Made by a program: the position numbers and the translations under genes. This document shows, piece by piece, positions 17,484 through 56,611 of a DNA stretch of 60,000 bases (position 1 is the first letter of the stretch; the number at the start of each line of letters is the position of its first letter). Origin of the DNA: Botryllus schlosseri (Eukaryota); the NCBI GenBank assembly GCA_051294905.1, contig CM119371.1, positions 6,574,001 to 6,634,000 on the forward strand. Reading direction: 5' to 3'. The notes beneath the pieces are model-generated. The model worked only from the letters and a program-made list of their open reading frames with translations. It did no database searches and had not been told where the DNA came from.

Positions 17484-19112
17484 CTATCTCTTCACACATA
17501 TGGATCCGTAGATTCGAAAACGTTGATCCACTTTTGGTGTCACTATCGTCCATTTGTTTTGCGATATATCATACTTTTCCATTGAACTAGAAGTTTCTCC
17601 ATCTGTTACTGCAAAAATCCACTTGTCAATGTGATATGCAGAAACTCGACCATGACGAGCATTCATATAAGATAATGAAGTCCACTGAGCTGAAGTAACA
17701 TCGTAACAATCTACGTTGTCGACATACATTCTTCCATACATCCCACCCATCACAAAAATCTTTTGCTCAACTGCAACAACACCACTCGAACGTACAGTAT
17801 ATCTCATTGGTTCGAGATCAACCCACTCTGATGACGATGGAATGAATCTGCAGAATGATGGAACTTCGACACCATCTTGTCCTCGACCTCCGATACAATA
17901 GATGGAATCATTCAATGATACGAGAGTTGTTGAAGATATCGCTGTAGGTTTGTCTTCTAGTTGAATCCATTGATTCACGAGGGAAGTAAACATTTCCACA
18001 TCACTTGTTGCTTTATTATAACTTCCTCCAACAACAAATATAGATCCCGACAAAGAAACTGAGCGAGGAATGGCTCCATGGTCACAAATCATGTCATTCA
18101 TTTTTTCCCATTCTGAATTTTTTCTCTGGAAATTGAGTCGATGAACTGATCTATCCCGGCATAAGACATAGATATAAGATTCCAGAGAAATCGCTGAGAA
18201 ATGTTTGAAATTCGTAAACTTCTCATCATGAAACTTCTCTACTTTTTCAGTTACTGGATTGAAGGATCGGATACAATTTGCGCTATTATCAAAAAGAATG
18301 ATCAATTCATCTATGTCAATTTCTTCGTTTGTTTTCTGAGTTGCTTTAGAAGCTTTCAAAAGATGTCCATTGATCAACTTGTACAGTCCTAAGTCGTTAC
18401 TGATGATTTGGTTTGATTCCAAAAGACGTTGTAAAAATGCAGGAGAGACTTCATCAAACTTGATTGCTTCGAGACATTCGTGCAAATGTTCTTGATTTCT
18501 GCAATTTTTCTCGACCCAATTGAACAATAAATTTAGTTTTTCTTCTTCACATAACTTTGATTTTTCCGACATCACGAATTTGAGGATGTTAGTTTTTTCA
18601 ATGTTTCCAAATTCAGGTTGGTTTGATATTTTTATAATATTGTCATGAAAAAATGCTCTACATCGCGTGAAGACGGCATCCAGTCCATACATATCTGCGA
18701 CATTTCTTGTGGAAAAGTAATTCTCAACATTAATTGATTCCTCCAGAACGTCAGACACTGCCTGTTTCACGTCATCCAAATGCATCATGATGGCGACATG
18801 AAGAAGATCATTCATCTTTTCATCAGGAATCTCAAATTTGCCCGAATATATGAAATCGATGCAGTTTTTCACACACTCAGAATCGACCTCTTTTAGAACA
18901 ACTTTTCCTTCCCGACTCTCTTTGGATTCGTGCTTTAACATCGCTTTGAAATAAGCACAACCAGCCGACAATACATTTCTGTGAGTGTAATAGATATCAT
19001 CTCCCACTTGAATTGTGAAATCACAATGATCGTTCTCTTGCTTCATTCGATGTAATTCTTCCATCATCTTCACTGAATGTATCTCAACATTTGGACACAC
19101 AATCTGCACCAT
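17484..19112 (-). CDS. Kelch-like BTB-BACK-Kelch protein, copy 1 (542 aa, single coding exon)
   Basis: BTB (CDFTIQVG, HRNVLSAGCAYFKAML, IDFIYSG), BACK (EEEKLNLLFNWV) and Kelch repeats (IFVVGG..VEMF..QW, IYCIGG..F.P..EW, IFVMGG..VDCYD..QW); uninterrupted ORF. Confidence 0.93.
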   Translation of the reverse strand: MVQIVCPNVEIHSVKMMEELHRMKQENDHCDFTIQVGDDIYYTHRNVLSAGCAYFKAMLKHESKESREGKVVLKEVDSECVKNCIDFIYSGKFEIPDEKMNDLLHVAIMMHLDDVKQAVSDVLEESINVENYFSTRNVADMYGLDAVFTRCRAFFHDNIIKISNQPEFGNIEKTNILKFVMSEKSKLCEEEKLNLLFNWVEKNCRNQEHLHECLEAIKFDEVSPAFLQRLLESNQIISNDLGLYKLINGHLLKASKATQKTNEEIDIDELIILFDNSANCIRSFNPVTEKVEKFHDEKFTNFKHFSAISLESYIYVLCRDRSVHRLNFQRKNSEWEKMNDMICDHGAIPRSVSLSGSIFVVGGSYNKATSDVEMFTSLVNQWIQLEDKPTAISSTTLVSLNDSIYCIGGRGQDGVEVPSFCRFIPSSSEWVDLEPMRYTVRSSGVVAVEQKIFVMGGMYGRMYVDNVDCYDVTSAQWTSLSYMNARHGRVSAYHIDKWIFAVTDGETSSSMEKYDISQNKWTIVTPKVDQRFRIYGSICVKR

Positions 19113-20374
19113 GATTGTCGATCAACTACAGTATATAATTATCCTAGATTATTATAATATAGTCAAGCACTGTTATTGAAGTAAAGATTAGTTAACTCAA
19201 GTAATGCCTGTTGATTGTTGAAAGAATCATAATACGTATATCAAGGTCACGAGTATGAATTAAAGGAAATTCAACTACACACAAGGTGATCACTGAACAG
19301 TCCAAAATCAGAGGCATCCCTGTTAAAATGCAGTTATGAAAACTTCTTTCATCGATTTACTTTAATTTTTATTCGCTGTATTGACACGAAACCAAAGAAT
19401 TATTGCGGTCGATTACCACCGCCTCGCGAATGATCGAGTTGATTATCCGTAGTGTAAATTATATTTTGGAACACCGTAAAATCATTTTATACCATGATAT
19501 TTTCCAGTGGCGGCCGCATCTGTTTCATGCTCCAACCGAATATCACAAAGATTGGTTGTAGAATAGCAGCAACACGAAAGATCACACTGATTTCACTCCG
19601 TGTTTGGAAACGAAATCAGCGAAGCATGTAGCTAGTCAGTGTCATCTAACGCAGTGCTTTTCAACCTTTTTGAGCTTCATTCGCACTTTTTTTGTAAAAT
19701 AAATTTCATTCGCACAAACTAACCGAATATTGATATACAAAAATAAGACAAAAATACATTTATTTGCTCAGATGTGCAACAAATTGGCTACTATGTATCT
19801 TAAGCTATCAAGTGTCTCATGAAAAATGCTACTATTTTCGCTCGTTTTGATTTCAGCTATTTCACTGAAACCCTTCTACTAGTTAACTAGTGCATGGATG
19901 GTCAGGTCTTAAAGCAGGGGTCACCAACACGCGGCCCGCGGGTCGCATGAGGCCCGCGATGTCATATTTTGCGGCCCGGGATCTGTTTTCATAAGAACGC
20001 CCAGTACTGAAATTCATTTCTGTTTGAAAATATTGTCGACGTTGTTCAAAATGTGCTATTCTCCCTTTAGAATCGCGAAACCCCTTCTTAAACGTGAAAC
20101 CCCATCCTTTTCAAATGGCCCTTCAGACCCTAATACTCGGTTGCAATTCAATAAGTCGTGTTATCAGTGTTGCGCGCGGCCAAATAACGACAGGCGTGAT
20201 ACCAATTAGCGAGATTCGTCATAGCGCATTGCACTGCAAATGTAACGTGACACGAGTGACACGATCTCCCGCTGAAATAATTGCAAAATCAGGTCATTGA
20301 TTGCCGCGCGCTCGGCAATCGTTGCTAGCCTGATTTATCGCGTCTCCAACAAGCCTAGTTCCACTGGCTTGAAT

Positions 20375-20522
20375 AATCGCATCTGCAATTGACCGTGTGT
20401 GCACGATATCATCGCTGGTCTACACAATCGTATCTGCATTGGCTTGGTGCGCACGATATCATCGCTGGCCTGCACAATCGCATCTGCAATAGGCCTAGTA
20501 TACGAAAGATATCGCTAGCCTA
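20375..20522. repeat. Degenerate ~50-bp minisatellite (about 3 units)
   Basis: Recurrent AATCGCATCTGCAAT...GCACGATATCATCGCTGG(T/C)CT units. Confidence 0.7.
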
Positions 20523-20776
20523 ACTACCGTTTCTTGGGCCTACCATACCTTGGCCGGGGCTACGTAAGACGCATTGGTCAGCGCGCGTATTTTATATTTC
20601 GATGCCTTGATAAGCGCGGGTATTCAATTGTTCACGACAGATCAGGAAGTCGCAAATTACCAGCTCTATCGGACTCGTCGACAAGCTGATAATACGCGTA
20701 TTATCGTCAACACGAGGATGTTGTATAATCGTTATTTACGCATGTGCTTAACCCTAATGAATTGATGCTATATTAC

Positions 20777-21467
20777 CAGGGCCGTAACTTCCGCACCTCA
20801 AACCCAATATATGTAATATTTTCAAAAATATTTCGCGCTAGGCGCAATTTCAAGTCGCCAAATATCTTGATTATTGGGTGCTCTTCCCCCAAGAAAAAAT
20901 ACGCAAGATTCATATAAATGGGCATATCGGAATTGGCCATTACCGCGGCACGAAGCACAAAGACATATAACTACGTTTTAGGCCATGAAACATGCGACTC
21001 CAAGAAGTGTGCCAGAACGATCGCAGCTAGACAAACACACAAGACGAATACAATCCTGCAGGAAAAAATTATATGCCAGTGAAGAAATACCAATCCGAAA
21101 CCGTGTGATCTTTCAGTCTAGTACGTTTGAGCGATTCTATATTTTTGATATAGCAGACAGGAGGTCACGAAATAACATCATGTAACGAAGTCATACCAAC
21201 GGGTCCGCCCGCCCGAAGATGTTCAATCATTATTTACGGACTGTACAGTTTCTAAGACACCTCACTCAGGTCTACCGGTAAATCTCATTACGTGAGCAGA
21301 GAGGACAAGACATTGATAGCAATATATATGCAATTCCCGATCTTATTGACCGATTTTATCATGAATTTTCGCGCTTAGTGCTGGCTCACTGAAGTTCGGT
21401 TTATTATACCATATAGGGGCACAGGACCAACGTTTTGGGGGGCTGACGAAGTGCTGTTACGGCCCTG
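20777..21467. mobile_element. hAT-type MITE (CAGGGCCGTAAC TIR)
   Basis: TIRs CAGGGCCGTAAC...GTTACGGCCCTG; perfect TSD TATATTAC at 20769-20776 and 21468-21475. Confidence 0.85.
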
Positions 21468-21795
21468 TATATTACCAAATTCGGTAAAAATCGAACCCAC
21501 CCTTTTATTTCAACCCCCCCTTTTTTCGGCTGGCTACGCCGAGCAGACAGATAGTCCTGGCACCGTGTCGACCCAAAATTATACCCTTTGCGGTCTATAC
21601 TTTAATAACTCCTGAAAGGCTAAAATTTGCGTTACTGTAACTTGCAAATGGCAGTCTGTAATGATAGTATTTACTACTGTCCTCGTGCCTAGCACTAATC
21701 GAACAGGTATTACGGAAGTATTGATGATTGTTCAGCGAAAGTGAGCAGAAAGTGAATGTAACGTCATTTTCCCAGCCTCTGACGGGTTGCTATAT

Positions 21796-22839
21796 TAGGG
21801 TTGCCATACGTCCGGAATTTCCCGGACATGTCCGGAATTTCACTGAAAAATCTGCGTCCGGGAGGAATTTCTAAAATATGCCTAAATGTCCGGAATTTTG
21901 AAGGCTTGAAGCAGGCTCAAAAGTTTTTCGTAAATCAACATAAACAATATTATATTTTCATGCAGATTTATGGTATTCAAAATTGTTCTTCGCGCCGCGC
22001 GCGAGTTAATGCAACGTATAATGATATTAGTATGGCAGCAGACACCACCCTCTCCAAAATGCAATCAAAAGTAATATAAATAACCATCATTTACCAAAAT
22101 AAGTCTGATTGTAATCGCAATTATAAGCTGATGGTATATTCCTGGAGCTGGTTAAGGTCGATTGGATGCTTCAATCACAAACAGTGGTTCCAAATCTTGG
22201 TGTCGTTCGCATTTATCTGGGGATCGCGATGATGTTAAGCTTTGCCACGGAACATTTTCAAGTGGAAAATGAGGTCGCGACCATAGAAGGTTGGAAATCG
22301 CCGGATGTGCAACATGGTGGTGCATTTTATAGTAGCCTAATATATGGAAGAATCAATATTATTGGCACAATTCATGCATAAAATTTAACAGCCAAATGTA
22401 TATAGTAAGTGCCCAACAAGTTACATCGACTATCCTATGGTGGGCCCAAGATCAGTGCTTTTTTGGGCGGAAGAGGGGGAGGAGAAAAATGTTGTTTCGG
22501 ATATGATTAAAACACATATACAGATAGCCCACCGACCTAACAGTATGCAGGACTTCCAAACACAATCCTGACAGGCCAGACACGGCCCTCCAGATGATTT
22601 CATCCGGCGCGTGGAGGAATCTACTGCAGACCCTAGCAAGTAGCAATCACCAGGGCTCACATTACAGATGGCCCAATCCATGACCTATGTTCCACTCCAT
22701 CCCTGTATAGTGTATACAAAACAGTCGATGGACAATGCTTTTCTAGTGTGACGTCATATTGACGGTCAATGAGTTACAACTCATTTTAAAATCCGCCAGT
22801 GGGCGCTGAAGAGTGCTTCACCAAAATATGGTAACCCTA
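21796..22839. mobile_element. hAT-type MITE, sister of 13019-15024
   Basis: TAGGGTTGCCATACGTCCGGAATTTCCCGG start, TATGGTAACCCTA end; perfect TSD TGCTATAT. Confidence 0.87.
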
Positions 22840-23550
22840 TGCTATATGTCTGTCACTTCACCAGCTTCCAAACCAGGGTTTTGGTTACGTAATAATTATA
22901 GTGCGAAAATATCAATTCACTACGGCTTGTGAGAGCTACGACTAGTGGTGTGTCGTAAGTTAAACAAGTTTTTACAATTGCGTCGCAACAACTAAAGTTA
23001 CACTGCCCTTGAATTTCGTATTATTTTTATTTGAAAAGCAATTATTATTCACGATTTTCATTCGCACTCATCCGGGATTTTCATTCGCACCGTTCGCACC
23101 ACCTTCGTCATTCGCACTCATCCAGGATTTTCATTCGCACCGTTCGCACCATGTTCGTCATTCGCACTGCAATTTTTTTCATTCGCACAAGTGCGAACCG
23201 TCACACAGGTTGAAAAGCACTGATCTAACGCATAATTAGTTTTTGCATTTGCAGTGTAGCCGTTACCACCAATGATATATATCTTGATCATTGCGGTTAC
23301 TGACGCGGCAAACCTTGTGCTATCAGCAACAGTTATTCAGTTTATGAATATTTTTATCATTGCAAAACACCACAAGACTGCGACTAGACGATGTAGAGAG
23401 GGATATTTAGAGCTAGTTCTAGATATCCGTGGATGTAGGGAAGAGGAAGGCACTGTCACACTCTATGTAGAGTAGACTGACTTTGGGTTGTTCTAAATCA
23501 GGGGCGCGCAACATACGGCCCGCAGCCAGCTTCCGGTCGCATACGATAAT

Positions 23551-24290
23551 TAGGGCTGGGCAAAATCGAGTACCTGAGTGATTCGATTCTGAATCACGCA
23601 ATATGCTTCGAGTCGAGTCGAGTAATCGAGTATCAATCATTATGACGTCATAACAGAGTGCAATACGTTAATGTTCAAATATGTACCGTTTATGCCACCA
23701 CAAAGAATTTAATGCCTGTTATCCATCTCATAAAAGATACTTTGGTATTTTTTCGACCATACCGATTTCATTCCACTTGGTGACAATGTTGAGGGATCAT
23801 CATGACTTCGGAAATGTGCCACGTCCAGTACCCTACGTAGCTTTGTACGATGTGTTTCGTATGCTGCGATACCGCCAAGCAAGGTTTCAAGGCTTCAACG
23901 GTGAAAATTTGTATCGAAACTATAATTCTCGTTGATAAATTAACTTTCGGGGGTGAGAAACGTATAATTTCAGTGTGAGAAGTATATTTAAAAGATGCAA
24001 AAACAGAAAATGGCACAACTGCAACGGAACAACGACCTCTCTCTCCACGGGTCACACGAGCTCTGAGGCACAATATTCACGACTATCAAACAACACGATT
24101 CGAACTAATAATTAACGAGCAATCAATCAGACGCACGCGCTATAATCAGCGTCCGAGGTAACAGTCAGTACACGAAATCTACAAAGGCACATTCAGTACT
24201 CGAAAAAATCGTATTTTTCTACTCGACTCGAATCATTGAAATTAATACTCGATTCAGATTCGAGTACTCGAATCATTGTGCCCAGCCCTA
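23551..24290. mobile_element. hAT-type MITE (TAGGGCTGGGCA TIR, TCGA-rich ends)
   Basis: TAGGGCTGGGCA...TGCCCAGCCCTA; TSD ACGATAAT/ACAATAAT; related copies at ~29977-30362 and ~44334-44785. Confidence 0.82.
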
Positions 24291-24950
24291 ACAATAATGT
24301 GGCCCGCGTCTACATTCACTCGCGAACCAACGTTTTCGACCATCAACATTATCCTAACAATTAAGACCAAGCCTCGTTCCAATGACCCTATATCAGGGGT
24401 GGGCAACATACGGCCCGCGGGCCGGATCTGGCCCGCGAAGGGATTTTGTCCGGCCCGCGGACAGTTTTCTGTCTTAAATGATAATGTGGCCCGCGGCCCT
24501 AGTATTCAGAGATTCCCTACTACTTGCGTGAACGTAAATTTTAGTGACTGTATGTTATTATACACATGTATGCGCACTGCGCAGTGAGCGAGGGTGGTGC
24601 TTACTCGTACGTTAGTCGAAGCGAGAAGACTTGCATTATCGGCATTTACGATGTAGTTAACCCGAATGTCATTTGTGGTAATCATGGTGTTTGTCGACTA
24701 CAATGGTCATTTACACAGGCCGATATTTCATATTTTTGATTCCGTAACCGTCGACTTGTAGCACGGCACACTTCTAGGCTTTTGTAAGACATCATGCCAG
24801 GGGTCGCCAACTCGAAACGGGTCACCAACTCGAAACGGGTCGTGGGCCACTTTGAAACTTCGTAGAGGTCGCGGGCCGCATGAATTCAATATCGAGATAA
24901 AATAGGCCACACAGTTGAACAACCGCGCTATATCTCATCACCTACTACAC

Positions 24951-25229
24951 CAGGGTGGCCAACCTGCAGCCGTAGAAGGGAGATTTGTGCGGCCGTGGAT
25001 AAGTAATTCAATTAGTACCGTATGTGTTGGCGGCCGTCGACATGCAATTTGAATTTACAAATTGAGTCCCGATTTTTTGAGAGATCCTAATTAATCTGCA
25101 AAATTTCTTCGCGCTGGGCGCGATTTTGGCGTCCAGATAGTTCATTATGACTATATGCCTGGAATGCGGCCGTAGGCTACATGAGTAGTCGAAATGCGGC
25201 CGTGAATGGCAAAAAGGTTGGCAACCCTA
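24951..25229. mobile_element. Short hAT-type MITE (GCGGCCG motifs)
   Basis: CAGGGTGGCCAACCT...AGGTTGGCAACCCTA; TSD TACTACAC/TACTAAAC. Confidence 0.75.
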
Positions 25230-25289
25230 TACTAAACTCAAATGAAGAGATATCTTGGTGAATTTGTGGTACCGGACTTATCGAACGCC

Positions 25290-26570
25290 TTCAAATCTTA
25301 ATTAGGGATTGAATCGTGTTGATCGATCAGAGAGAAGAAAACATGGTGGTGCCTGTATGACAATGCTGTTCTCAAATCCACATTGTTTTCGTCACTTTTT
25401 AAATACATTCATTAAATACGATTTATTCCCTGTGTATGTGGATAAATGGGCGAATAATGTTTCGATTCAGCAATCCGGCCCGCCAAGTATTTAATTTTCC
25501 TATATCCGGCCCGTCGACTGAAGAAGTTGCCCGCCCCTGCCCTATATGTTTATGTGCAGTCTTTACTGGGGGTTTGTAAGTCCAACATGCAGCCAGAGAG
25601 TTCAAAGAACTTGTATCGACCACGGATTGACTTTAACAGCTATTGAAGTACGTTACTAAATTCATTGACTACTGTTTTTGGTCTCTATGCTTCACGCTCA
25701 AAGTTTGTATTAAATACGATTTGTACCTTGTATAGGTGGATAAAGACGCGATTGATGTATCGATTCAGCAATCCGGCCCGCCAAGTACTTTATTTTTCCA
25801 TTTCCGGACCGCCGAACGGAGAAGTTGCCCTCCCGGGTTCGGAATGTTCACCGCATATTAATCAGGTCGATAACTTGCTAGATTCCCAATCTCGTGCTTT
25901 CAATACAGTTTATTTTTACAAACAGTAGACAAGTAACAAACCCAGTTATGTCCGATTCATTACGCTGAAGATGACGAGAATTTACTCTTACGCAGTTGTA
26001 AGCAACAGATAGGACAAAGGCTGAGAGACATTGAATTCCTGGACTCTCTTCTGAGTAAATACTACTCAAAGCTTGTACACTGTCCATTCTCAGTTATTGA
26101 TCCTCAACCTACTTGTTCCTTTTTGCACATAAGATACATTCCGTATTAGCTTACCTGGTTCATTATCTCATTTAAATAACCATTTACCCTGGTTGCGGCT
26201 GACACGAATATCGTCGTGATCATATCCGCGGTACCAGTCAATACCGATAAATCACTGTTTGTGTTTGTTAAATATTGCACCAGTCGTGCCTAAAATTTAG
26301 TGATGATATACTTATAGAAACCTGCTCTTCCAAAGCATCAGGTCCAGCAAACAACAGCTCAATACCATCCAAACCACTGAGGCAATGTGAAGATGTCAAA
26401 CTAGCTGTAGTAACTAGAGCGAAAGAATCCAAACTTCTGTACAATCATCTGTAGCCTACATAGTAAGTATTAGAATGTGCGATCTAAATTGCTCTCATCC
26501 CTAAGTCAAGAGAGGCCATATTTGGCTTTGCGAATAGTCAGGGTTAACATGTCTGCGAAAAGCAGTGGTA
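25290..26570 (+). mobile_element. Highly decayed CR1/L2-group LINE relic co-duplicated with the units
   Basis: RVDRSERRKHGGAC resembles the APE R.DR..R.GGGV motif and KFSDD the RT catalytic motif; 26470-26560 aligns to 442-538, 1062-1160 and 38250-38345. Confidence 0.5.
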
Positions 26571-26899
26571 CTTGTCCTTTTCATAGCCGTGGCCCAATTT
26601 CCATTATGCAAATATGCAATGACCCACCACTCGTCCTCAGTCTTCTTTTAGGCGGCAGCAATACGGCAGGTTTAGGCTTAGCAGTTCATATCAAATCATA
26701 GCAAGTTTTCATGAGCACGAGAATGGCAAATGTATGTATCGCAAGCTTGGCTCGTTTCAAACTATACAGTTTTTCTGTAGCCTTTACAGGAAATCCAGAA
26801 ATTAAAGTGGAACATTTCCCAAATTAGTTTAGAGTCAGATTACTGGCATTTTCCTCGAATTAGTCGAATAAGTCAACTAAAACTATCCCGTTGTCTAAG

Positions 26900-33149: not shown

Positions 33150-33342
33150 ATTCTGGTGTTGTCGTTTGGTGTGAATCGTGATACTGATGCTCCAAAAACC
33201 GTCCATTTAACATTCTCAAACCCGTTTTTTTAAAGGCATATTCTATTACCAACTCAGTAATTTGCATTTCAAGTACTGCAGTCTTTATGGAACTGAAAAT
33301 CCATTTTTGTACCAGTCTGCTCAGCCGAGTTATGAGTGCAAT

Positions 33343-34971
33343 CTAACTCTTCACAAATATGGATGTGTAAATTCGACAACATTCATCTACATTTGGTTTC
33401 ACTTTGGTCCATTTGTCTTGAGATATATTATACTTTTCAATTTCATCAGAGGTTTCGTAATCTGTTACTGCAAAAATCCACTTGTCAATGTGATAAGCAG
33501 AAACTCGATAATGACAAGCATTCATAGAAGATAATGAAGTCCACTGAGCTGAAGTAACATCGTAACATTCTACGTTGTTGACTGGGTATTCTCCACTCTC
33601 TCCACCGATAACAAATATCTTCTGATCAACTGCAACAACACCACTCTCATAAACAGGATATCTAATTGGTTCGAGATCAACCCACTCTGATGAGGATGGA
33701 GTGAATCTGCAGAATGAAGAAAGTTCGATACCATCTTGTCCTTCACCTCCGATACAATAGATGGAGTCATTCAATGATACGAGACTTGCATCACATATCG
33801 CTGCAGGTTTATCTGCTAATTGAATCCATTGATTCACGAGGGAAGTAAATATTTCCACATAACTTGTTGCTTCATTATAACTTCCTCCAACAACAAATAT
33901 TGATCCCAACAATGAAACTGAGCGAGGATACCACCCATGATCACAAACCATATCTTTTATCCTTTCCCATTTTGGATTTTTGCACCGAAAATTGAGTCGA
34001 TGAACTGATTTATTCCAACATAAGACGTAGATATACGAGTCTAACGAAATCGCCGAGAAATCTTTCAAATTCCTAAACTTCTCTTCATGAAGATTCTCTA
34101 CCTTTTCAGCTAATGGATTGAAGGATCGGATACAATCTGTGTCATCATCAAAAAGAATAATCAATTCATCCTTGCCAATTTTTTCATTCTTTTTGTGTGA
34201 TGCTTTTGGAGCTTCTAAAAGATGTCTGGTGATCAACTTGTACAGTCCTAAGTCGTTATTGATAATTTGGTTTGATTTCAAAAGACGTTCTAAAAATGCC
34301 GGAGAGACTTTATCAAACTTGATTGCTTCGAGACATTCGTGCAAATATTCCTTATTTTTCCGATTTTTCTCGACCCAATTAAACAACAGCGTAAGTTTTT
34401 CTTCTTGGCATAACTTTGACTTTTCCGACATCACAAATTTGAGGATTTTAGATTTTTCAATATTTCCAAATTCAGGTTGGTTTGAAATTTCCATGATATT
34501 TTCATGAAAAAATGCTTGACATCGTGCAGAGACGGCATCCAGTCCATACATATCGGCGACATTTCTTGTGGGAAAGTAATTCTCTACATTAATTGATTCC
34601 TCCAAAACATCAGATACCGCCTGTTTCACGTCTTCCAGTTGCATCATGATCGCGACATGGAGAAGATCGTTCATCTTTTCATCAGGAATCTCAAATTTGC
34701 CCGAATATATGAAATCGATGCAGTTTTTCACACACTTAGAATCGACCTCTTTCAAAACAACTTTTCCTTCACGACTCTCTTTAGTGTCGTGTTTCAACAT
34801 AGCTTTGAAATAAGCACTACCGGCCGACAATACATTCTTGTGAGTGTGATAGACATCATCTCCCACTTGAATTATGAAATCACAATGATCGTTATCTTGC
34901 TTCATTCGATGTAATTCTTCCATCATCTCCACTGAATGTTTCTCTACATTTGTACACACAATCTGCACCAT
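33343..34971 (-). CDS. Kelch-like BTB-BACK-Kelch protein, copy 2 (542 aa, single coding exon)
   Basis: Ungapped paralog of 17484-19112. The first ATG is at 34971; the ORF-track start at 34980 is a TTG. Confidence 0.93.
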   Translation of the reverse strand: MVQIVCTNVEKHSVEMMEELHRMKQDNDHCDFIIQVGDDVYHTHKNVLSAGSAYFKAMLKHDTKESREGKVVLKEVDSKCVKNCIDFIYSGKFEIPDEKMNDLLHVAIMMQLEDVKQAVSDVLEESINVENYFPTRNVADMYGLDAVSARCQAFFHENIMEISNQPEFGNIEKSKILKFVMSEKSKLCQEEKLTLLFNWVEKNRKNKEYLHECLEAIKFDKVSPAFLERLLKSNQIINNDLGLYKLITRHLLEAPKASHKKNEKIGKDELIILFDDDTDCIRSFNPLAEKVENLHEEKFRNLKDFSAISLDSYIYVLCWNKSVHRLNFRCKNPKWERIKDMVCDHGWYPRSVSLLGSIFVVGGSYNEATSYVEIFTSLVNQWIQLADKPAAICDASLVSLNDSIYCIGGEGQDGIELSSFCRFTPSSSEWVDLEPIRYPVYESGVVAVDQKIFVIGGESGEYPVNNVECYDVTSAQWTSLSSMNACHYRVSAYHIDKWIFAVTDYETSDEIEKYNISQDKWTKVKPNVDECCRIYTSIFVKS

Positions 34972-35153
34972 GATTGTCAATCAACCACGATATATAGGCT
35001 AATTATCCTAGGATTATTATTGTACAGTAGCACTGTTATTGAAGTAAAGATAATTCTCAAGCAATGCCTGTTAAGCTGTTGGAAGAATCATACTACTAAT
35101 CAACGCCACGAGTATGAATCGAAGGAAAGTCAACTGCAAACAAGGCACTAAAC

Positions 35154-45999: not shown

Positions 46000-46577
46000 C
46001 AGGGTTGTAATCAAGTCACAAGGCTCTGTGTCACAAGTCAATCCCACTTTTATAGTTCTGACTCGAGTCAAGTCGACTCACTTTCAATTTATCACCGAGT
46101 CCAAGTCAGCAAGGAGCAGCTCGAGTCCGAGTCATGGGTTTATGACTCAAGTCCGAGTCCAAGTCATTGTGTTGACTGCTCAGTTTCAAGCTAAAATCTT
46201 GTTAATTCCCCTTTTTATAACTCTGTTTGGTGATATCTAATGGCTCGCATTCACTTTTAGCAGTTTCTGGTCGCATTTTCAAGTACCAGTACCAATACAC
46301 GAAATATGAATGTTGGAGTTATTTTGAAATTCTTCGAAATCAATATGAAATGTCGGTCATATCCGTCTGAGTCCCGAGTCATGCGCAATGACTCGAGTCC
46401 AAGTCAAGTCAATACACAGATTGACTCGAGTCAAGCCGACTCATCTCCATATTTCAAGAAAATGACTCGAGTCAAGTCGAGTCATCAGAAGATCGTGACT
46501 CGAGTCGAGTCATGACTCGAGTCACGATCTTCTGTAATGACTCGAGTCCAGTCATGACTCGAGTCATTACAACCCTG
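46000..46577. mobile_element. GACTC-family hAT MITE (uninterrupted copy)
   Basis: CAGGGTTGTAA...TTACAACCCTG; TSD GTCTATGG/GTATATGG. Reverse-orientation relatives at ~40810-41195, ~44040-44270 and ~47803-48225. Confidence 0.85.
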
Positions 46578-48811
46578 GTATATGGTGAAAAAATTATGAT
46601 GCATGAATTTATTAGCGTTAAGTAGACTACATACACCATACCACATCGATCGAATTTCTTGCAGGTATGATATATATATAGTTATACACTCCCCATCTCA
46701 CACTACCACAAGATTGCTAGCGAGTCCGACTGTGCAGACAATTAGCAGGATCGCGATTTCCCGTCAATATACAACATATTCGTCAACACGCGCATCGATC
46801 ACTCCGCCTCAAGAACAAGCGAATACGCATCTTCAACGACGGCTAATAAACTTAAGTTACAGGAATGATTTTCTCAAATGGCAATTCTGTTCTGGACTCT
46901 GTTCAGTAAGTAACAATAATTGCAGAGGAGTCAGAACTTTTGACATCCAGAGCCTGCAACCAATTTCTGATCGTTGTGTTTTAGTATTAGTGCAAATCAA
47001 AATAAATAATGCCGCTTGATTCTGTTCACAGCCAGTATGTTTTTTGATCCATTGCGTTCACGTTCGATGTCTTGAGCAAGTTGTTGTCACAATCACAGCA
47101 GACGCGACAGCTCTGGTCAGCGCGCCAGATATCACATTTAGACACAGCAGAAGATGACAATCACTGCATTTCGCGCCTATAGAAATTGACATCTTTGGCA
47201 TTGAGGCCTCGGTCTTGTTGCCTTGTGTCGCAATTTTGTAAAAAGATAAATTCAGAATTACTCACTGTTATCTCTCAGGTAGAATTTTCACAAATTGATG
47301 CATGTCAGATTCTAACTGATTGATAACGGTTGAGATTGTCATGCAAACTTCTTTCATCACCAAAGCCATTTCCCACCGAACGACCAGACCATTAAATGAT
47401 ATGTTATAAATATTATGATTTTCTGATTGCAATTAACTGTAATAAAATGAAGAATGGTTATGGAAAATAAACTCAATGAATGAATAATTGTATTGTATAT
47501 GCACCATAGGCTGTTTAAGCCTGGCTACTGTACCAGCAAAAGTGGTAGCCTATACAACAAGTTGCCAATAGTCGCCTCATATAAACAGAATCGAAATGGT
47601 TTATTTTGAGAATACATACAAATTTGGTATCCTGATCATGGATAACGGAAAGCGAACAACTTTTTTCAATCGAGGTGACCCCAAATTCGTCAAAAACAAT
47701 CAAAAGAACATGATAAACAAAACGTTCATCCGATTTTATCAAGTAGTAAAATATTGTTTATGCAAGTTCTCATTAAATATGATGGCCATATGAATTTGTA
47801 ACCCAGGGTTGTTTTGACTCGAGTCATGACTCGACTGGAGTCCGGGTTGAGTCACCATATTTTGGTGACTCGACTTGACCAGAGTCATTTTTTCAAATGC
47901 GCAAAATGACTCGACTCGAGTCAATTTTTGTATTGACTCGACTTGTAGGCCTACTCGATTCATTGTGTATGACTCGAACCAAGACATATGACTTGAAACT
48001 AGACGGCTAAGACAGACATTTCATTGTAACTTCGAATAATAGTAAAAGTCTCCACATGATTGGTATTTCGACTATTAGTTCTGATACTTGCGAAATGGGC
48101 TACAAACTGATTGTACCGAGGAAAATTACAATATTATCATTATGAATGCGAACCATTCTATTTCACTCGAGCAGAGTTGAAAAAAGTGGGTTGGACTCAA
48201 AAAACTGAACAGTAAACACAATGACTTTGAAGAGTGAATAGCTCGAAGCATATATCGCATGCGGCTCAACTAGTATTGAGATAATTCTCGCTCATTTGAA
48301 ATTTCCATGCATTGAGTCATTGTATGCTGTGGGTTATTTCATACTGAATTAGCGGAAGTGTGAAACTTGAACCGCCAGCAGTAAGCAGTAGGTACGAACT
48401 CCTGATATTGGCCATATAACCATTGTGGCAACAGTTGTAGGCTACAAGTCGTCATAATCCTTGACCATGTCTATATTGAATAGGCCTAAGGAACTAAATA
48501 TATGATTGGATGCATCGACTAAATCTACCGGCAAGATCATGCACTGTGGCACAATTAATGGAAGTATATTACCACAAAATTACTGGTTACTATTGCTATT
48601 ACATTCATCAAATGATACGAATTTACCAAAAAGCAGTTTACACTTATCAAATTACTGCCGCATTGAAATAAAAATGCACAATTTTCAATGCAATTATGAT
48701 GGATATGGCTTGATGAATTGAAAATATCAAATGTGAGAAACTTTATATTCATTCATGTCAAAGCTGCAGACTTGTACTAACTACTAATTGAGTTACTTCG
48801 ACGGTCAAGAC

Positions 48812-48896
48812 TAGATAACCATGCTATCTCTCTCTACAGACCCTAGTCATCCTTTGATATGCTTAGTAAATGTAGGTAGACATACATGTTTGTTTA
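48812..48896 (+). repeat. 5' LTR (internally deleted)
   Basis: Matches both ends of the 3' LTR, joined at a TCATCCTT repeat. Confidence 0.85.
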
Positions 48897-51800
48897 TGAC
48901 TAGCGCTCTAATACAGCTGTATCAATAAAATGCCTCAACTGGACTGCCCCATTGAGGACTGCCCATGGAAGTCACAGGATTTGGCTGAGGCGTTAGCTCC
49001 TGCCCTCATCAAAGCCCTCGAAATCCACGACAGGACTGTTCATGGCGCTGCTACAACTGAGTCTGGGCCCCCGCTCAAATTGGAAAAGCCGACTATCGCA
49101 TCGGGATGCGATCCCGAGAGATGGTCAGCCTTCACGAGAGAGTGGCGTATGTACAAAACTGGCTGTCGCATCTCCGACAACATGGCCTCTACTGCTCTCT
49201 TCCACTGTTGTGACTCCGAGCTACGTGCCGATATACTGAGGGATATCCGACGCGACATTGATGCCATGACAGTTGAAGATCTGCTCGCTGCGGTCAAGCG
49301 CTTGGCTGTGAAAGACGAAAGTATACTAGTGCATCGACTCAGGCTCAGCAAGATGGTTCAGACCCCCGGCTCTAGCATCCGCACCTTTCTTGCTAGCCTG
49401 CGTGGTCAAGCTGCCTTGTGTCAGTACACATCGACCTGTCGGGAGGAGGGCTGCAACCACGTCTTCGATTACAGTTCTGAGATCATAAAGGACAACCTTA
49501 TTCGGGGCATCGCCGACCCCGATATCCTCTCTGATATCCTCGGTGATGCTGCCACAGACCGCTCCCTGGAAGACACTGTCTCCTTCATCGCCAGAAAGGA
49601 ACAGGGACGCCTGACGCACTCCGAGGTCGGTAATTTCCCTGCGACACCACAGTCTGCAGCTGCCGTTCAACCTTCCAGGATGTGCTGGGCCTGCGGCGGA
49701 CGGCCCATGCCCCCCGCAACGACCGTGACGCACGGAAAAGCAAGTGTGAAGCCTGGCATTCACTGTGTACGAAATGCTCGTCCAAAGGCCATTACACAAA
49801 TTGCTGCAGACAATACCTAGATTGTGGAAAATGGGGCCACAAGGATAAATCGTACCGGCTTTGCGCGAAGCATAAGTCCAAGCAGTTGGAGGCCCGGAGT
49901 GAATCCTCCTCCAGCCCTGCCGAAAGAACTGCTAGCTGCATCGACTCTCAGCTCTCGAATGACGCCCTGTGCTGCCCCTCGGAATCTCTCGAGGCAAAAC
50001 GGATAGCATCACTTTCAGCTATGGTGAATAGACTCGATCATCACGTGTTCGATGATGGCTGGAAAGTACGGCCATCCAAACCTCACCCTGTCGTACTGGT
50101 CTCGATGAACTTGCTTCCCGATGCACATTCTCTGCTGGGTCACCCCATTCGCACCTCCGCTCGGCTTTCCTCCATCCGGACTTACATGGTAGCTGACACG
50201 GGTTGCCAGAGCTCCATCATTCCCTTGTTCATCACTGTGCGACTGGGCATCGACCGCCGTGATCTGCTCCCTGTTAAGCTAATCATGGAGGGCCCATCTC
50301 ATGCAGATTTGGGCATAGTTGGTGGAATCGCTGTGGATATCAGTTTCGCGGGACCCGGTGGGACTGCGAGGACAGCCCGCATCATGTGCTATGTGTCGTC
50401 GACGCTTGACAGATCCTACCTCTGCAGGGACGTTATCGATACAAGGTTGCACCGCAAGGCTTCCTGGCAAGTGGTGACGCATATAATCAACGTTTCGACG
50501 CAATCGTCTCCGACTTCCCAGACAAAGTGAAGTGTGTCGATGACACTTGCATGTGGGCGGAGGACATTGAAACTGCTTTTCTTCAGACGTGCCGATGGCT
50601 TGATTTATGTGCCCGCAATGGCATCACTCTGAATCCAAAGAAATTTCAGTTTGCGCAAGAAGAAGTGGACTTTGCTGGATTGACGATCTCTATGACCAAC
50701 ATCCGCCCACGCACCAAGTTCCTCAACGCAATAAGGGACTTCCCTACACCTGCTGACATTACCGGGGTGCGAGCATGGTTCGGACTGGTGAATCAAGCAG
50801 CGTACACCTTTGCCATGGCACAGCAGATGACGCCATTCAGAGACCTGCTGAAACCGGCCGAGAAATTTGCTTGGTCTGAAGAATTGGAACACGCCTTCCA
50901 GCTGTCAAAAAAAGCAATCATTTCTGAAATTGAGAATGGTGTGAGACTCTTTGACCCTAGCCGACCAACATGCCTCGCGACTGATTGGTCTGTGTCCGGG
51001 ATTGGCTTTTTCATGACACAGAAGTACTGCAAGTGCGATCCTGTGACGCCGACCTGTTGTCCGGATGGATGGAAACTATGCCTGGTCGGAAGCCGTTTTA
51101 CTCACCCAGCGGAGAGCAGATACGCCCCCATTGAGGGCGAAGCACTGGCTGTCGCATATGCGCTCCACCAAACGAGATATTATGTCCTTGGGTGCACCCA
51201 GCTGATCGTCGCCACTGATCATAAGCCTCTTGTGCGGGTCTTCAATGACAGGTCCCTGTCGGACATCACCAACAGACGGCTCCTCAACCTCAAGGAAAAG
51301 ACCCTTGGATACCGCTTTCAGATTGTCCACGTGCCCGGCAAGAGCAATCACGTTGCAGACGCTGCATCCAGGAACCCGCATGGCCCTCCCGTCAGCCGTC
51401 AGGCTTGTGCTGCCCGGAGAGGCACCCGAAACTGATCTCACACCGCGCCGCCCTACCGCCGTGTCCAAGATTCCGAGACTGATCGACGATGAGCCAGACT
51501 TTGCTGACGATGCTTCAACCGTGGCTGCCGTTACTGCCAGTCTTCGGGCCTCGACGACGGTTGTCACATGGGACATGGTACGTGAAGCTACCTCTTCTGA
51601 TAGCGACCTTCAGCAGCTGAACCTGTATATCAGTGAAGGATTTCCGACCGACCTCCGCATCATGCCTGCTAGCTTGCGTCCTTACCACAGGTTCTCGTCG
51701 ATGCTGAGCACTGTGGACGGCGTTATTCTTATGGGACAACGGATCGTGATACCCTCGAGTCTGCGTCATGAGATCCTGACCGCGTTGCATGCCGGGCATC

Positions 51801-52197
51801 AGGGCACTTCTGCCATGAATGCTAGGGCGAGGGACTCCGTTTTTTGGCCACTAATCACAGTCGACATCTCTCGCATTAGAGACCAGTGTGGTCACTGCCA
51901 CAGGATCGCGAAATCCAACCCCATGCAGCCTCCAGCCGTCCTGACACGCCCAGAGTACCCTTTCCAGATGATCTGCAGTGATTACTTTTCTCACAATGGC
52001 AAGGACTATGTTGTCATTGTTGATCGGTACTCTAACTGGCCGATTGCGTGTCACTCGAACTCTGGTGCCGATGGACTCATCTCGCAGCTACGGCAAACCT
52101 TCGTGACTTTTGGCATTCCAGAAGAGCTGACTTCTGATGGCGGGCCACAGTTTACTGCTTTGAAGACCCAGGCATTCTTGAAATCGTGGGGCGTAAC

Positions 52198-53501
52198 CAG
52201 AGGTGGTCAGTAACGAAGTACTTCTACTTTTTCGAAGTACTCAAGTAGTTTTCCCCTACTTCTGGTACTTACTCAAGTAGATCTGATTTTCGCTACTTCT
52301 ACTTCCACTTCTTAATATTTTGTGATCTACTTACTTACTTCTCGCTATTTTCAGTTTGTCAAGTAGAAGTAGTTCAATCTTTCAATCAGGAAGATAGCCT
52401 GAGGAATTTCGGAACTGTTTTCACGGAGTATTAACATTTAATTTTCATAAAAGTTTAGTAAAGCACAGAATTTTCGTCGCGCTTCGCGCGCAGTGGATAC
52501 GGAGTGACCAGTCTGATTTCACGACAGTATCAGTGAATATAATTTAGGTGGCGGTTTGGCGTGGTTCCGTTCACACCACATTATCGCCCTTCACCCATAT
52601 GAAATAATTCATCACAGTTTATATGGCTCATCATAACGTTTGAAACTGATGCTTCGCAATCTAGCATTTTCTTGTCATATCGTAATCTAGCATATCTATG
52701 TCCTGTCCATGGCGTGTCCTAATCTGGAAGAGTGGACTTTGACTTTTTTTTTAGTTTTAGAGCTGTTTTAGCATACCACCTTTGAAACTTTCTGGACTAA
52801 AAACATGAAATACATATTCTGCTAGCAGAAGTAGTATTTATATTTCACTTTCAATTCCCAGTATCATATACTTTGAGTTATAATTATTATCAGTTCTTTT
52901 GTCCGAATAACATACATGTTGAAGTATAAAAGCAAGTGCAGTAGCCTAATGCCTTTAATTTCTGAAAATAAAGCTACACAATATGGCATTTTTACGGTCC
53001 ACCAGGTTTTTTATTAACGTTTACTAATCGCGCAAAGTGTTTGCACCGTATCCTATACAACTTCTCCATATTGCTCTTCGACTAAACTACGGGCCGTATA
53101 GGGAGATGGCGCCATACCATGATATTTTCCATGACGCGTTGTTCGAGAAAACAGAGGATTAGTATCGCATCTCTTTATCAATACTATCATTTTCACCCCA
53201 TGATGTGAACGAATGCTTATGCTATCAAAAATTGGATACCTGCTGGTATGCATCAATATGAATCAAGCTCGTCACCTATCACATAGCTCAATTTGCACCT
53301 TTTTATAATCCATCCAATCAGGATCGTTTTCACAACTACTTACTTACTTGAGTACTTTTAAAGTCAGTCAATTCTACTTCTACTTCAAGTAGTTTCAGGT
53401 TGCTCATGAAAGAAGTACTTCTACTTGTACTTGAGTAGATTTTTTCGTCGCTACTTCTACTTCTACTTGAGTAGCCTTCTTGACTACTTTGACCACCTCT
53501 G
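52198..53501. mobile_element. hAT-type MITE (TACTT subterminal family) inserted in the Gypsy integrase
   Basis: CAGAGGTGGTCA...TGACCACCTCTG; perfect TSD GGCGTAAC. Removal rejoins the integrase frame WGVT|HRVSSVANPHANCRAELAVK. Confidence 0.9.
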
Positions 53502-54369
53502 GGCGTAACCCACAGAGTATCTTCGGTCGCCAACCCACACGCGAACTGTCGAGCCGAACTTGCAGTCAAGACGGTGAAACGGATGCTCATGGACAACACA
53601 TCCAGCGGCGGCTCATTGGATGTCGACAAATTCCAACGAGCTATGTTGCTGTACCGCAATTCCATTGACCCGGTGACTAAGGTCTCCCCTGCGATGATCA
53701 TATTTGGACGCCCTATTCGCGATGCTATCCCGATCCCATATGCGCGCTACGTACCCCATGAATCATGGCGAGAAATTGTAGCCCACCGGGAACTTGCCAT
53801 GGCACGGCGACACTGTCGCGAATACGAAAAATGGAGCGAACACACCAAGACGCTGCCTGCTTTGAAAGTCGGTGACCATGTCTACCTGCAGAATCTAGTT
53901 GGGAACCATCCGAAACGCTGGGAGAGAACTGGCGTTGTCGTCGAGGTGCGCCAGCATCACCAGTACGTCATTCGCGTTGACGGGTCTGGCCGCGTAACCA
54001 TACGAAACCGACAACACTTGCGCCGCTTTACGCCATTCTCAGTGCCCGGACACCCGACATTTACAACGACACCGCTTCAGGATCCTGGACCTGCGACCGG
54101 CCACCCCGAGGTCCATACCACACCGTCTGCTGCCTCAGAACCAGCCGCTCAGCCGGAAAACTTGCCTGATGATGTCGACGAGCCTCCTGCAACGACGACC
54201 CCACGGCCACCGCTGGCCCTGGCTCGCTTACAGCCATACAACAAGCCAGGACTGTCAGAATCTCATCCATTGCCCAGGTCACGACACGCTGTCGTCGATC
54301 CTTGAGAGAGACTGTCTTTTGTGCTAGTATCGCCTTGGCACTCCAAGACTCGTCTGTGGGGAGGGGAGA

Positions 54370-54593
54370 TAGATAACCATGCTATCTCTCTCTACAGATC
54401 CTAGTCATCCTTTTCCTCACCCTTACTTGAGACTGAAATGCTAGGGGGGGGGGGAAGGATAGCAATTTACCATTTCGTTGCAATACGTTTCTTTCTGCGT
54501 TGTGATATTTATTTCCATTCTGTAAGGCTGTCGGAAAAGTATTTCATCCTTAGATATGCTTAGTAAATATAGGTAGACATACATGTTTGTTTA
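54370..54593 (+). repeat. 3' LTR (224 bp)
   Basis: Follows the polypurine tract GGGGAGGGGAGA; starts TAGATAACC, ends TTTGTTTA, followed by the AAGAC TSD. Confidence 0.88.
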
Positions 54594-54982
54594 AAGACTA
54601 GTTCTAATTACCGATTTTGAAAGCGAATAGTTGTAGTGTTGATATTAGTGTAAATACCAACAGCGGTACACTGGCACAGTAATTGGGTGGGTTGAAAACG
54701 GTACATTTCAAACTATTATTAAAATTCTTTTTAAACGCCGATTCTATCCCTGATATTTTCACTTATCAGGCTCATTTACAATTCAGTAATTCACATTATC
54801 AGTATTGCAGTTGCTTCAGAATTGAAACTACTAAGTTGTTTTTATTTGCCAGTTACGGATTTTTAAAGCATGTGAATTGTAATTCTAGTAGCCAGTTTTG
54901 AAAAGTGAGTGGTTCTAGTTCTCGGTTGAGTTGCATTTTGAAAATCCAGTAATTTGTACAAGTCTGCTCGGGTGAGTGCAAT

Positions 54983-56611
54983 CTATCTCTTCACAAATAT
55001 GGATGTGTAAATTTCAACACATTGATCCACTTTTGGTGTCACTATTGTCCATTTATCTTGCGATATATCGTACTTTTCAATTGAATCAGAGGTTTCTCCA
55101 TCTGTTACAGCAAAAATCCACTTGTCAATGTGATACACAGAAACCCAATCGCGACAAGCATTCATAGAAGATAAAGAAGTCCACTGAGCTGAAGTAGCAT
55201 TGTAACATTCTACGTTGTTGACTTTCATTCCTGGTGTCCACCCTCCGATCACAAATATCTTTTGATCAACTGCAACAACACCATTTCCACTTACAGGATA
55301 TCTCATTGGTTCGAGATCAACCCACTCTGATGAGGATGGAGTGAATCGGCAGAATGATGAAACTTCGACACCATCTTGTCCTTTACCTCCGATACAATAG
55401 ATGGACTCATTCAATGATACGAGACTTGCATTACTTATTGCTGTAGGTTTATCTTTTAGTTGAATCCATTGATTCACGGCTGAGGTAAATATTTCCACGT
55501 CACTTGTTGCTTTAGGAGAACTTCCTCCAACAACGAATAGCAATCCTGACAACGAAACTGAACGAGGATCGTTTCCATGGTCACAAATCATATCTTTCAT
55601 CCTTTCCCATTTTGAATTTTTGCTCTGAAAATTGAGTCGATGAACTGATTTATTCTCACACAAAACGTAGATGTGCGAGTCTAGAGAAATCGCCGAGAAA
55701 TGCTTTAAATTCCAGAACTTCTCATCATGAAACTTCTCCACGTCCTCAGTTACTGGATTGAAGGATCGGATACAATCTGCGTCATTATCAAAAAGAATTA
55801 TCAAATCATCTTTGCTGATTTCTTCGTTTGTTTTCTGTGATGCTTTTGAAGCTTTTAAGAGACGTCCAGTGATCAACTTGTACAGTCCTAAGTCGTTACT
55901 GATGATTTGGTTTGATTCCAAAAGACGTTCTAAAAATGCAGGAGAGACTTCATCAAACTTGATTGCTTCGAGACATTCGTGCAAATGTTCCTGATGTCTG
56001 CAATTTTTCTCGACCCAATTGAACAATAAATTTAGTTTTTCTTCTTCACATAACTTTGATTTTTCCGACATCACGAATTTGAGTATGTTAGGTTTTTCAA
56101 TGTTTCCAAATTCAGGTTGGTTTGATATTTCCATGATATTGTCATGAAAAAATGCTCTACATCGCGTAGAGACGGCATCCAGTCCATACATATCGGCGAC
56201 ATTTCTTGTGGAAAAGTAATTCTCTACATTAACTGATTCCTCCAAAAAGTCGGATACTGCGTGTTTCACGTCTTCCAACTGCATCATGATTGCGACATGA
56301 AGAAGATCATTCATCTTTTCATCAGGAATCTCAAATTTGCCTGAATATATGAAATCGATGCAGCTTTTCACACACTGAGAATCGACCTCTTTCAACACGA
56401 CTTTTCCTTCACGACTCTCTTTGGTGTCGTGCTTTAACATAGCTTTGAAATAAGCACAACCAGCAGACAATACATTCTTGTGAGTGTAATAGACATCATC
56501 TCCTACTTGAATTATGAAATCACAATGATCGTTTTCTTGCTTCATTCGATGTAATTCTTCCATCATCTTCACTGAATGTGTCTCTACATTTGCACACACA
56601 ATCTGCACCAT
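54983..56611 (-). CDS. Kelch-like BTB-BACK-Kelch protein, copy 3 (542 aa, single coding exon)
   Basis: Ungapped paralog of the other two copies. The first ATG is at 56611; the ORF-track start is a TTG. Confidence 0.93.
   Translation of the reverse strand: MVQIVCANVETHSVKMMEELHRMKQENDHCDFIIQVGDDVYYTHKNVLSAGCAYFKAMLKHDTKESREGKVVLKEVDSQCVKSCIDFIYSGKFEIPDEKMNDLLHVAIMMQLEDVKHAVSDFLEESVNVENYFSTRNVADMYGLDAVSTRCRAFFHDNIMEISNQPEFGNIEKPNILKFVMSEKSKLCEEEKLNLLFNWVEKNCRHQEHLHECLEAIKFDEVSPAFLERLLESNQIISNDLGLYKLITGRLLKASKASQKTNEEISKDDLIILFDNDADCIRSFNPVTEDVEKFHDEKFWNLKHFSAISLDSHIYVLCENKSVHRLNFQSKNSKWERMKDMICDHGNDPRSVSLSGLLFVVGGSSPKATSDVEIFTSAVNQWIQLKDKPTAISNASLVSLNESIYCIGGKGQDGVEVSSFCRFTPSSSEWVDLEPMRYPVSGNGVVAVDQKIFVIGGWTPGMKVNNVECYNATSAQWTSLSSMNACRDWVSVYHIDKWIFAVTDGETSDSIEKYDISQDKWTIVTPKVDQCVEIYTSIFVKR

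Follow-up and report, generated by a model that had tools for sequence, protein, structure and literature searches.

MATH, F-box-associated and B30.2 domains are known to serve as diversifiable recognition modules, and TRIM5 and the fish finTRIM proteins carry, in B30.2, E3-linked recognition modules with hypervariable surface loops. The MATH-BTB and F-box adaptor families are said to be under adaptive evolution, as Thomas reportedly described in 2006, and poxviruses encode BTB-Kelch proteins, viral hijackers of Cullin-3 (Cul3) that share the architecture considered here. One such protein is vaccinia A55 (10.1101/461806, in the part of the text available), and there are published accounts, again in their available parts, of F-box diversity in C. 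elegans (PMC8120010) and of the expansion of MATH-BTB genes in grasses (PMC4091423). For Kelch propellers, the accessible text of Canning et al. (PMC3597819) states that DA and BC loops give the upper-face pocket its shape and, as a rule, that the propeller is closed by its C-terminal beta-A strand. Here, we describe a large family of BTB-BACK-Kelch (i.e., KLHL-type) genes in the tunicate Botryllus schlosseri, three members of which lie in the 60,000-nucleotide stretch that we analyzed (hereafter the window; C1:6574001-6634000 of the 495.5-Mb assembly GCA_051294905.1, C1 being contig CM119371.1). The scaffold of these proteins is supported as being under purifying selection and a small set of codons in their BC and DA loops as being under diversifying selection, such that almost every paralog has its own pocket.

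The three genes in the window are intronless, lie on the minus strand and encode 542 amino acids (aa) each: copy 1 at window positions 17484..19112 (with its stop codon at 17484-17486), copy 2 at 33343..34971, and copy 3 at 54983..56611. All three are ATG-to-stop open reading frames (ORFs) that align over 542 columns with no gaps, just as an initial annotation of this DNA had claimed of three intact paralogs, with identities to copy 1 of 79% for copy 2 and 84% for copy 3. Their assignment to the BTB-Kelch proteins, made in the same annotation, was upheld by Pfam, by an AlphaFold model and by Foldseek. The BTB (PF00651, aa 22-126; E-values of 5.8e-22, 1.1e-22, and 1.2e-21 in the three copies) and BACK (PF07707, aa 134-231; 1.8e-13 to 2.7e-14) domains, which are also recovered by HMMER alignment to the BTB-BACK part of KEAP1, occupy 18420..19049 in copy 1 and the same offsets in copies 2 and 3, and together form what is presumed from sequence to be the dimerization and Cul3-docking half. 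Several Kelch models match the remainder (Kelch_1 at E 1e-24 to 1e-29), with all domains well past the Pfam curated cut-offs. Based on the DSSP strands of the model and on Foldseek, the six-bladed propeller of copy 1 (aa 269-542) spans 17487..18308, and the register of the gap-free alignment places those of copies 2 and 3 at 33346..34167 and 54986..55807.

The predicted structure of copy 1 (mean predicted local distance difference test score of 91.8, from an 83-row alignment) consists of a helical BTB-BACK part (helical over aa 132-259) joined by a short, disordered stretch (aa 259-266) to 24 strands arranged in six blades, the first of which is completed by the C-terminal strand at 533-541. 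Whole-chain Foldseek searches returned KBTBD2, KLHL22 and KBTBD4, all solved in complexes with CUL3, and the propeller alone superimposes on the Kelch domains of KLHL12 and KEAP1 with TM-scores (normalized to the target) of 0.83-0.86. The family thus shares with the vertebrate Cul3 adaptors KEAP1, KLHL12, KLHL2/3, KLHL20, KLHL22, and KBTBD2 the same three-domain build, six-bladed propeller and C-terminal closure. However, identity to these adaptors is only about 18-25% and no single orthologue stands out: the best match with a solved structure is KEAP1 (E 5.7e-40), followed by KLHL12, KLHL2, KLHL20, and KLHL22 (E 1e-21 to 1e-26), and neighbors in the protein atlas are labelled KLHL24, KLHL2, and KLHL3 alike. 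Unlike the vertebrate adaptors, the genes described here are intronless, shorter at 542 aa and present at more than 100 loci, with a hypervariable pocket in place of a conserved one.

Among expanded adaptor families, those of nematodes and plants are the closest in kind: MATH-BTB and F-box genes have in common with the present family a lineage-specific tandem expansion, a conserved docking domain, many pseudogenes, and positive selection confined to the substrate-binding domain. What differs is that here a Kelch propeller has been diversified, with selected residues distributed over 11 of its 12 upper loops, and that the host is a tunicate, a relative within the chordates. TRIM5 and finTRIM proteins differ from it in both fold and type of ligase, and the poxvirus BTB-Kelch proteins are single viral genes that act against the host. 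A literature search for an expansion of BTB-Kelch genes in tunicates, or for selection on the Kelch pocket in an expanded animal family, found none. We would call the family a case of expanded E3 adaptors under adaptive evolution, which is a known kind, and the tunicate BTB-Kelch case appears to be new.

Selection on the pocket loops

The window genes belong to an array on C1 of about 58 loci within about 1 Mb, nearly all on the same strand, in which 45 intact ORFs of 536-551 aa share 73-100% of their amino acids (median 79%). After removing one member of a pair with identical coding sequences (L044/L045, see below), we aligned the remaining 44 paralogs (567 codons) and fitted codon site models with our own likelihood code (GY94, F3x4, fixed topology, M0 branch lengths multiplied by one free scale factor), which reproduces the M0 log-likelihood (lnL) obtained with IQ-TREE, -24565.26. 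Models that allow for positive selection fit far better than those that do not: lnL rose from -23451.36 under M1a to -23103.98 under M2a (likelihood-ratio test statistic, LRT, 694.8), with omega 4.32 on 5.6% of codons, and from -23443.44 under M7 to -23078.59 under M8 (LRT 729.7), with omega 3.53 on 7.1% of codons. M2a assigns 68% of codons an omega of 0.16, and posterior probabilities above 0.95 single out 26 sites under M2a and 29 under M8. When the two halves of the protein were given separate trees, the LRT was 456 for the Kelch half and 74 for the N-terminal half; pairwise among the three window copies, dN/dS over aa 1-270 is 0.20-0.21.

These results bear out what had been noticed from only the three window copies. 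The initial annotation had described a shared scaffold, evident here in the low omega on two thirds of codons, and more variation in the loops than chance would give, which the two site-model comparisons (LRTs of 695 and 730) support. Its proposed comparison of M7 with M8 found dN/dS above 1 at loop codons. All nine of the variable loop strings that it quoted are present in the alignment, and each of these loops contains at least one site with a posterior above 0.95. Its remark that changes at these places involve several nucleotides also held: among the three window copies, 55% of codon pairs at the 26 selected codons differ at two or more bases, compared to 3% elsewhere, and across pairwise comparisons the corresponding ranges are 47-55% and 3-4%.

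Mapped onto the predicted structure, 22 of the 26 M2a sites fall inside the propeller, where they cluster in loops credited with shaping the substrate pocket, both by the initial annotation (inter-blade loops and those after the GG motif) and, in its available part, by PMC3597819 (DA and BC loops). BC and DA loops, as delimited by the DSSP strands, make up 111 of the 274 propeller residues but hold 19 of the 22 propeller sites under M2a (hypergeometric p 5.6e-6) and 21 of 24 under M8 (p 9.7e-7), with at least one selected site in 11 of the 12 loops. The M2a exceptions are 378, which lies in a CD loop and also fails the control for synonymous rate described below, and 533 and 536 in the closing strand. 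In a HMMER alignment to KEAP1 (chain 6wcq_C, whose numbering is that of UniProt plus 7, as checked on Y334, S363, R380, and R415), sites 393, 410, 441, and 442 pair with the ligand-contact positions S363, R380, N414, and R415; because the blades repeat, this pairing denotes an equivalent place within a blade and not the blade number. The top-face residues of KEAP1 that contact Nrf2 are, according to the accessible text of PMC4629420, S363, R380, N382, R415, R483, and S508, with N414 contacting an inhibitor.

Taken over 21 of the selected propeller positions, residues form 43 distinct signatures in the 44 paralogs, which differ from one another at a median of 17 of the 21, with about 9.7 residue types per site and with arginine enriched 4-fold and tryptophan 2-fold. 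Almost every paralog has its own pocket. Three sites outside the propeller of copy 1 also pass both site tests, namely aa 7 in the N-terminal tail, aa 79 in BTB and aa 211 in a BACK helix (window positions ~19092-19094, 18876-18878, and 18480-18482, respectively); these could touch dimer or Cul3 interfaces.

The reading that we favor, with a probability of around 0.6, is that of a birth-and-death array of intronless Cul3 substrate receptors whose Kelch pockets have been diversified, probably in genetic conflict. Each of the proteins, as members of such an array in an ascidian-type genome, would most likely be a dimeric substrate receptor of a Cul3 ubiquitin ligase, to judge from homology and fold: attachment to Cul3 would fall to the BTB-BACK half, which purifying selection has preserved, and the upper-face pocket of the six-bladed propeller would be where a target protein is held. 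The BC and DA loops forming that pocket are under recurrent diversifying selection at one to four residues each. Different paralogs may then recognize intracellular ligands that differ from each other or change quickly, and target them for ubiquitination, with exchange of segments between paralogs probably adding to the variety.

Recombination and control analyses

Several observations weigh against this reading. Six of the 14 splits supported at 95 or more in the ultrafast bootstrap (UFBoot) tree of the N-terminal half are contradicted by splits supported at 95 or more in that of the Kelch half, a conflict indicating that segments have been exchanged, such that recombination or gene conversion among the paralogs is likely and tree-based LRTs may be inflated. 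The likelihood code itself ties branch lengths to those of M0 through a single scale factor and is not a full PAML implementation, and the "upper face" is assigned by loop class and by sequence alignment to KEAP1, with no three-dimensional distances. Taken as whole classes, the loops do not exceed a dN/dS of 1 (1.20 for BC, with an interval of 0.85-1.70, and 0.61 for DA), so that the signal is confined to a few residues per loop. When the synonymous rate alpha was left free on a grid, 7 of the 26 sites dropped below a probability of 0.9 that the nonsynonymous rate beta exceeds it: 204, 378, 393, 489, 505, and 533 (alpha of at least 3.4), and 319 (at 0.86). Reads are scarce as well: four RNA runs, from each of which 1.0-1.9 thousand million letters were compared with window positions 14501-24500, gave a depth of 0-2x over the coding region of copy 1, and 99-100% of the reads mapped from the three bulk ones continued into unlike sequence, which suggests that they probably derive from paralogs or repeats; no reads were clearly from copy 1 in the four runs over this interval.

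Part of this evidence would be expected if there had been no adaptive diversification, the loops being simply unconstrained (omega of about 1) and gene conversion, together with errors in alignment and tree, producing spurious values of omega above 1. The recombination signal between the halves, the whole-loop values at or below about 1 and the seven sites lost once the synonymous rate varies all favor this explanation. However, tests that use no tree argue against it. At the 21 columns in which all three window copies differ, the pooled Nei-Gojobori dN/dS in the other 41 paralogs was 1.60, compared to 0.35 elsewhere. When paralogs were split at random into 22 and 22, with sites called in one half and dN/dS (NG86) measured in the other, the two halves yielded 15 and 23 sites, 14 of them shared, and these had dN/dS values in the opposite half of 1.67 (bootstrap interval 1.17-2.46) and 1.86 (1.36-2.74), both intervals excluding 1, whereas the remaining codons were at 0.33-0.36.

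Nor are the loops as a class mutation hotspots, given that dS is even across structural classes (0.25-0.34 throughout); the dN/dS of the other classes is 0.27 for the N-terminal half (aa 1-268), 0.30 for strands and 0.34 for lower loops. With the synonymous rate free, 19 of the 26 sites keep a probability above 0.9 that beta exceeds alpha, with beta at 2.4-12; this grid is unregularized and over-calls sites of low alpha (67 sites in all), and we used it only to recheck the 26 M2a sites. Moreover, the signal was replicated at the same positions in an independent sample of 21 paralogs drawn from other clusters (pairwise identity 53-93%, with one identical duplicate and the reference removed): here M2a surpassed M1a with an LRT of 124.8 and identified eight sites (319, 347, 393, 410, 442, 458, 488, and 489), seven of which are among the original 26 (p 2e-9). 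Because the alignment is, in addition, nearly free of gaps at the selected sites, an absence of adaptive diversification is already disfavored, and we give it only a very slim chance. Cumulatively, the diversification of the pocket is real and strongly supported.

Size, layout and upkeep of the family

The initial annotation covered three of the roughly 58 array loci and noted neither how large the family is nor the signs of recombination between its members. A six-frame search of the genome with copy 1 gave 535 first-look candidates, and all 80 of the hits that were scored had E-values of 1e-204 or lower at 60-100% identity. The 24-place pattern for the motif CIDFIYSG matches the genome 115 times, 55 of them in C1:6.54-7.59 Mb, compared to no match for the reversed control; it misses at least two known members, and the genome contains at least 115 loci carrying the motif. 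In addition to the array, there are clusters at C1:13.9, 14.7-16.0, and 35.9-36.2 Mb, and others on C3, C14, and C16. Among 1.84 billion representative proteins, the nearest relatives outside the genome are 53%, 48%, and 43% identical over their full length, and the next full-length matches in a single stretch are only 24-32% identical. A word-index search of proteins gave just four hits, all of them nameless. Apart from the 45 intact members, the array contains one 533-aa member at its edge on the opposite strand, one with a replaced N-terminus, and 11 that are truncated, frameshifted or interrupted by stops. Copies have thus been gained and lost in a tandem expansion specific to this lineage.

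Some loci depart from this general picture. The coding sequences of L044 (C1:6707039) and L045 (C1:6851876) are identical, with 0 nucleotide differences, as are the proteins of L076 (C1:35999604) and L077 (C1:35879435), and the members of both pairs are 120-145 kb apart; they may be very recent segmental duplications or redundancies of the assembly. The member with the replaced N-terminus, L047 (C1:6914240-6916351), has its first 35 residues exchanged for an unrelated N-terminal extension, its open frame being 581 aa long. At C3:19.33-19.48 Mb, there are about 12 loci (L064-L075), spaced at about 4-5 kb, that match only the N-terminal half (aa 1-263, at 38-52% identity), and several of their ORFs are 261-277 aa long and end just past BACK. 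No Kelch part was present in the 2.5 kb retrieved for each of these loci, which may encode Kelch-less BTB-BACK partners or regulators. Lastly, when 31-letter words of copy 1 (window positions 17400-19300) were sampled, other DNA-type runs labelled as the same species contained only 23-37% of them, which hints at strong allelic divergence or at variation in presence and absence.

Gene copies of this kind could also be unexpressed genomic ballast, either retrocopies or the cargo of a mobile or virus-derived element, that was amplified without any function for the host. That the genes are intronless, have retroelements around them, and left no clear reads of copy 1 in the RNA runs would all be compatible with such an origin, as would the presence of giant-virus BTB-Kelch clusters among the feature matches in the protein atlas. 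Yet 45 of the roughly 58 loci keep their full frame at a dS of about 0.28, with omega at 0.16 on two thirds of codons, and this is not expected of dead copies. The homology between repeat units also extends into diverged flanks, as in tandem duplication: in self-BLAST comparisons, blocks of 86-89% identity extend from 80-170 nt upstream of the ORF to about 30 nt downstream of it, and beyond these blocks there are patchy matches of 70-75% that are collinear between units, as expected for an old tandem duplication.

The region upstream of the start codon is itself conserved. Over the 80 nt before the ATG, mean pairwise identity among 29 paralog loci is 0.83-0.87, compared to 0.80 at 4-fold degenerate sites, whereas further upstream it declines to 0.50-0.60, making those flanks more diverged than the 4-fold sites. 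This block, at 19113..19192 on the minus strand in copy 1 and at 34972-35051 and 56612-56691 for copies 2 and 3, is presumed to be a 5' untranslated region or core promoter, and is where the self-BLAST blocks terminate. Considered alongside the maintenance of reading frames, its conservation speaks against ballast, which we regard as very improbable; and the diverged outer flanks, together with the conflict between the trees of the two halves, hint that conversion is limited to the gene.

Apart from the three genes, recognizable coding sequence in the window derives from retroelements. When the other ORFs (18 frames of at least 110 aa) were scanned against Pfam, 12 had no match and the rest contained only retroelement domains, so that no partner gene was found inside the repeat unit among these ORFs. 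An element of the long interspersed nuclear element type lies at about 7067-9884 on the minus strand, with an Exo_endo_phos endonuclease-like ORF, a reverse transcriptase ORF and a GC content of up to 0.55. Between copies 2 and 3, a degraded retroelement of the long terminal repeat type (48912-54305, plus strand) contains reverse transcriptase-RNase H and integrase segments over several overlapping frames, and its presence accounts for the wider spacing of these copies (21.6 kb, versus 15.9 kb between copies 1 and 2). A non-coding repeat of 1.5 kb occurs at 5495-6974 and 57187-58680 (81% identical), recurs in weaker form at 26.3-27.5 kb and 38.1-39.0 kb, and is probably an interspersed element within the array.

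Ligands, docking and setting

Binding of Cul3 by the family is inferred from sequence and from the modelled fold; the genome holds at least five cullin loci, all multi-exon. The proteins might instead be binding modules that work without Cul3-dependent degradation, such as decoys that tie up their ligands or Kelch proteins with a cytoskeletal or scaffolding role, with BTB serving only for oligomerization. The position aligned to what we take to be the hydrophobic residue in the alpha3-beta4 loop of BTB in known adaptors appears to be a serine or threonine here, and the existence of a separate cluster of Kelch-less BTB-BACK genes is consistent with BTB-BACK having roles of its own. However, the entire BTB-BACK-Kelch build, including BACK, has been maintained by purifying selection (with the N-terminal half at the dN/dS of 0.27 given above), and the full-length fold resembles that of adaptors solved on CUL3, such that we consider a role independent of Cul3 quite improbable.

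If the proteins are Cul3 receptors, as we prefer, the most likely setting for their diversification would be a genetic conflict, the opponents being viruses or other intracellular parasites, proteins of transposons, or selfish elements, as has been proposed for the nematode F-box and MATH-BTB adaptors. The conflict could alternatively be reproductive, i.e., one in which the pocket tracks fast-evolving germline proteins during gametogenesis, sperm competition, self-sterility or hybrid incompatibility rather than in defense. A precedent for expansion of the same BTB-BACK-Kelch architecture comes from termites, in which KLHL10-type genes number 37 in Zootermopsis and 10 in Macrotermes and are tied to spermatogenesis, the available part of that report making no mention of selection on pocket loops (PMC4348803); and in Caenorhabditis, a young F-box gene degrades an essential enzyme in hybrids (PMC11573670, in its accessible text). 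That the four RNA runs contained almost no reads would also fit if expression were limited to unsampled tissues or stages. Against this, we found no tie to KLHL10 in the sequences, whose best solved relatives are KEAP1, KLHL12, KLHL2, and KLHL20 at similarly low identity, and more than 40 different pockets seem many for a single reproductive task. We regard a germline conflict, the main rival to our reading, as unlikely.

An immune-like role against pathogen or non-self proteins, as the initial annotation proposed, is speculation. In its most elaborate form, which we entertain as a tentative and rather doubtful possibility, the family would be a germline library of more than 100 intracellular Kelch pockets, each on a Cul3-docking handle, that tags viral, transposon or other non-self proteins to be destroyed. 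Selection and exchange among paralogs would diversify this innate repertoire, heterodimers formed through BTB would broaden it, and the Kelch-less BTB-BACK cluster would perhaps tune it.

The present family constitutes a concrete and testable set of genes for tunicate immunology and for research on conflicts within genomes. With a fixed frame and a single pocket that occurs in more than 40 natural versions, it provides a ready series for determining how Kelch pockets encode specificity, a question that bears on drug design for KEAP1 and KLHL proteins and on the engineering of degraders. And if our preferred reading is true, a close invertebrate relative of vertebrates would be using a KEAP1-type propeller as a diversifiable recognition module.

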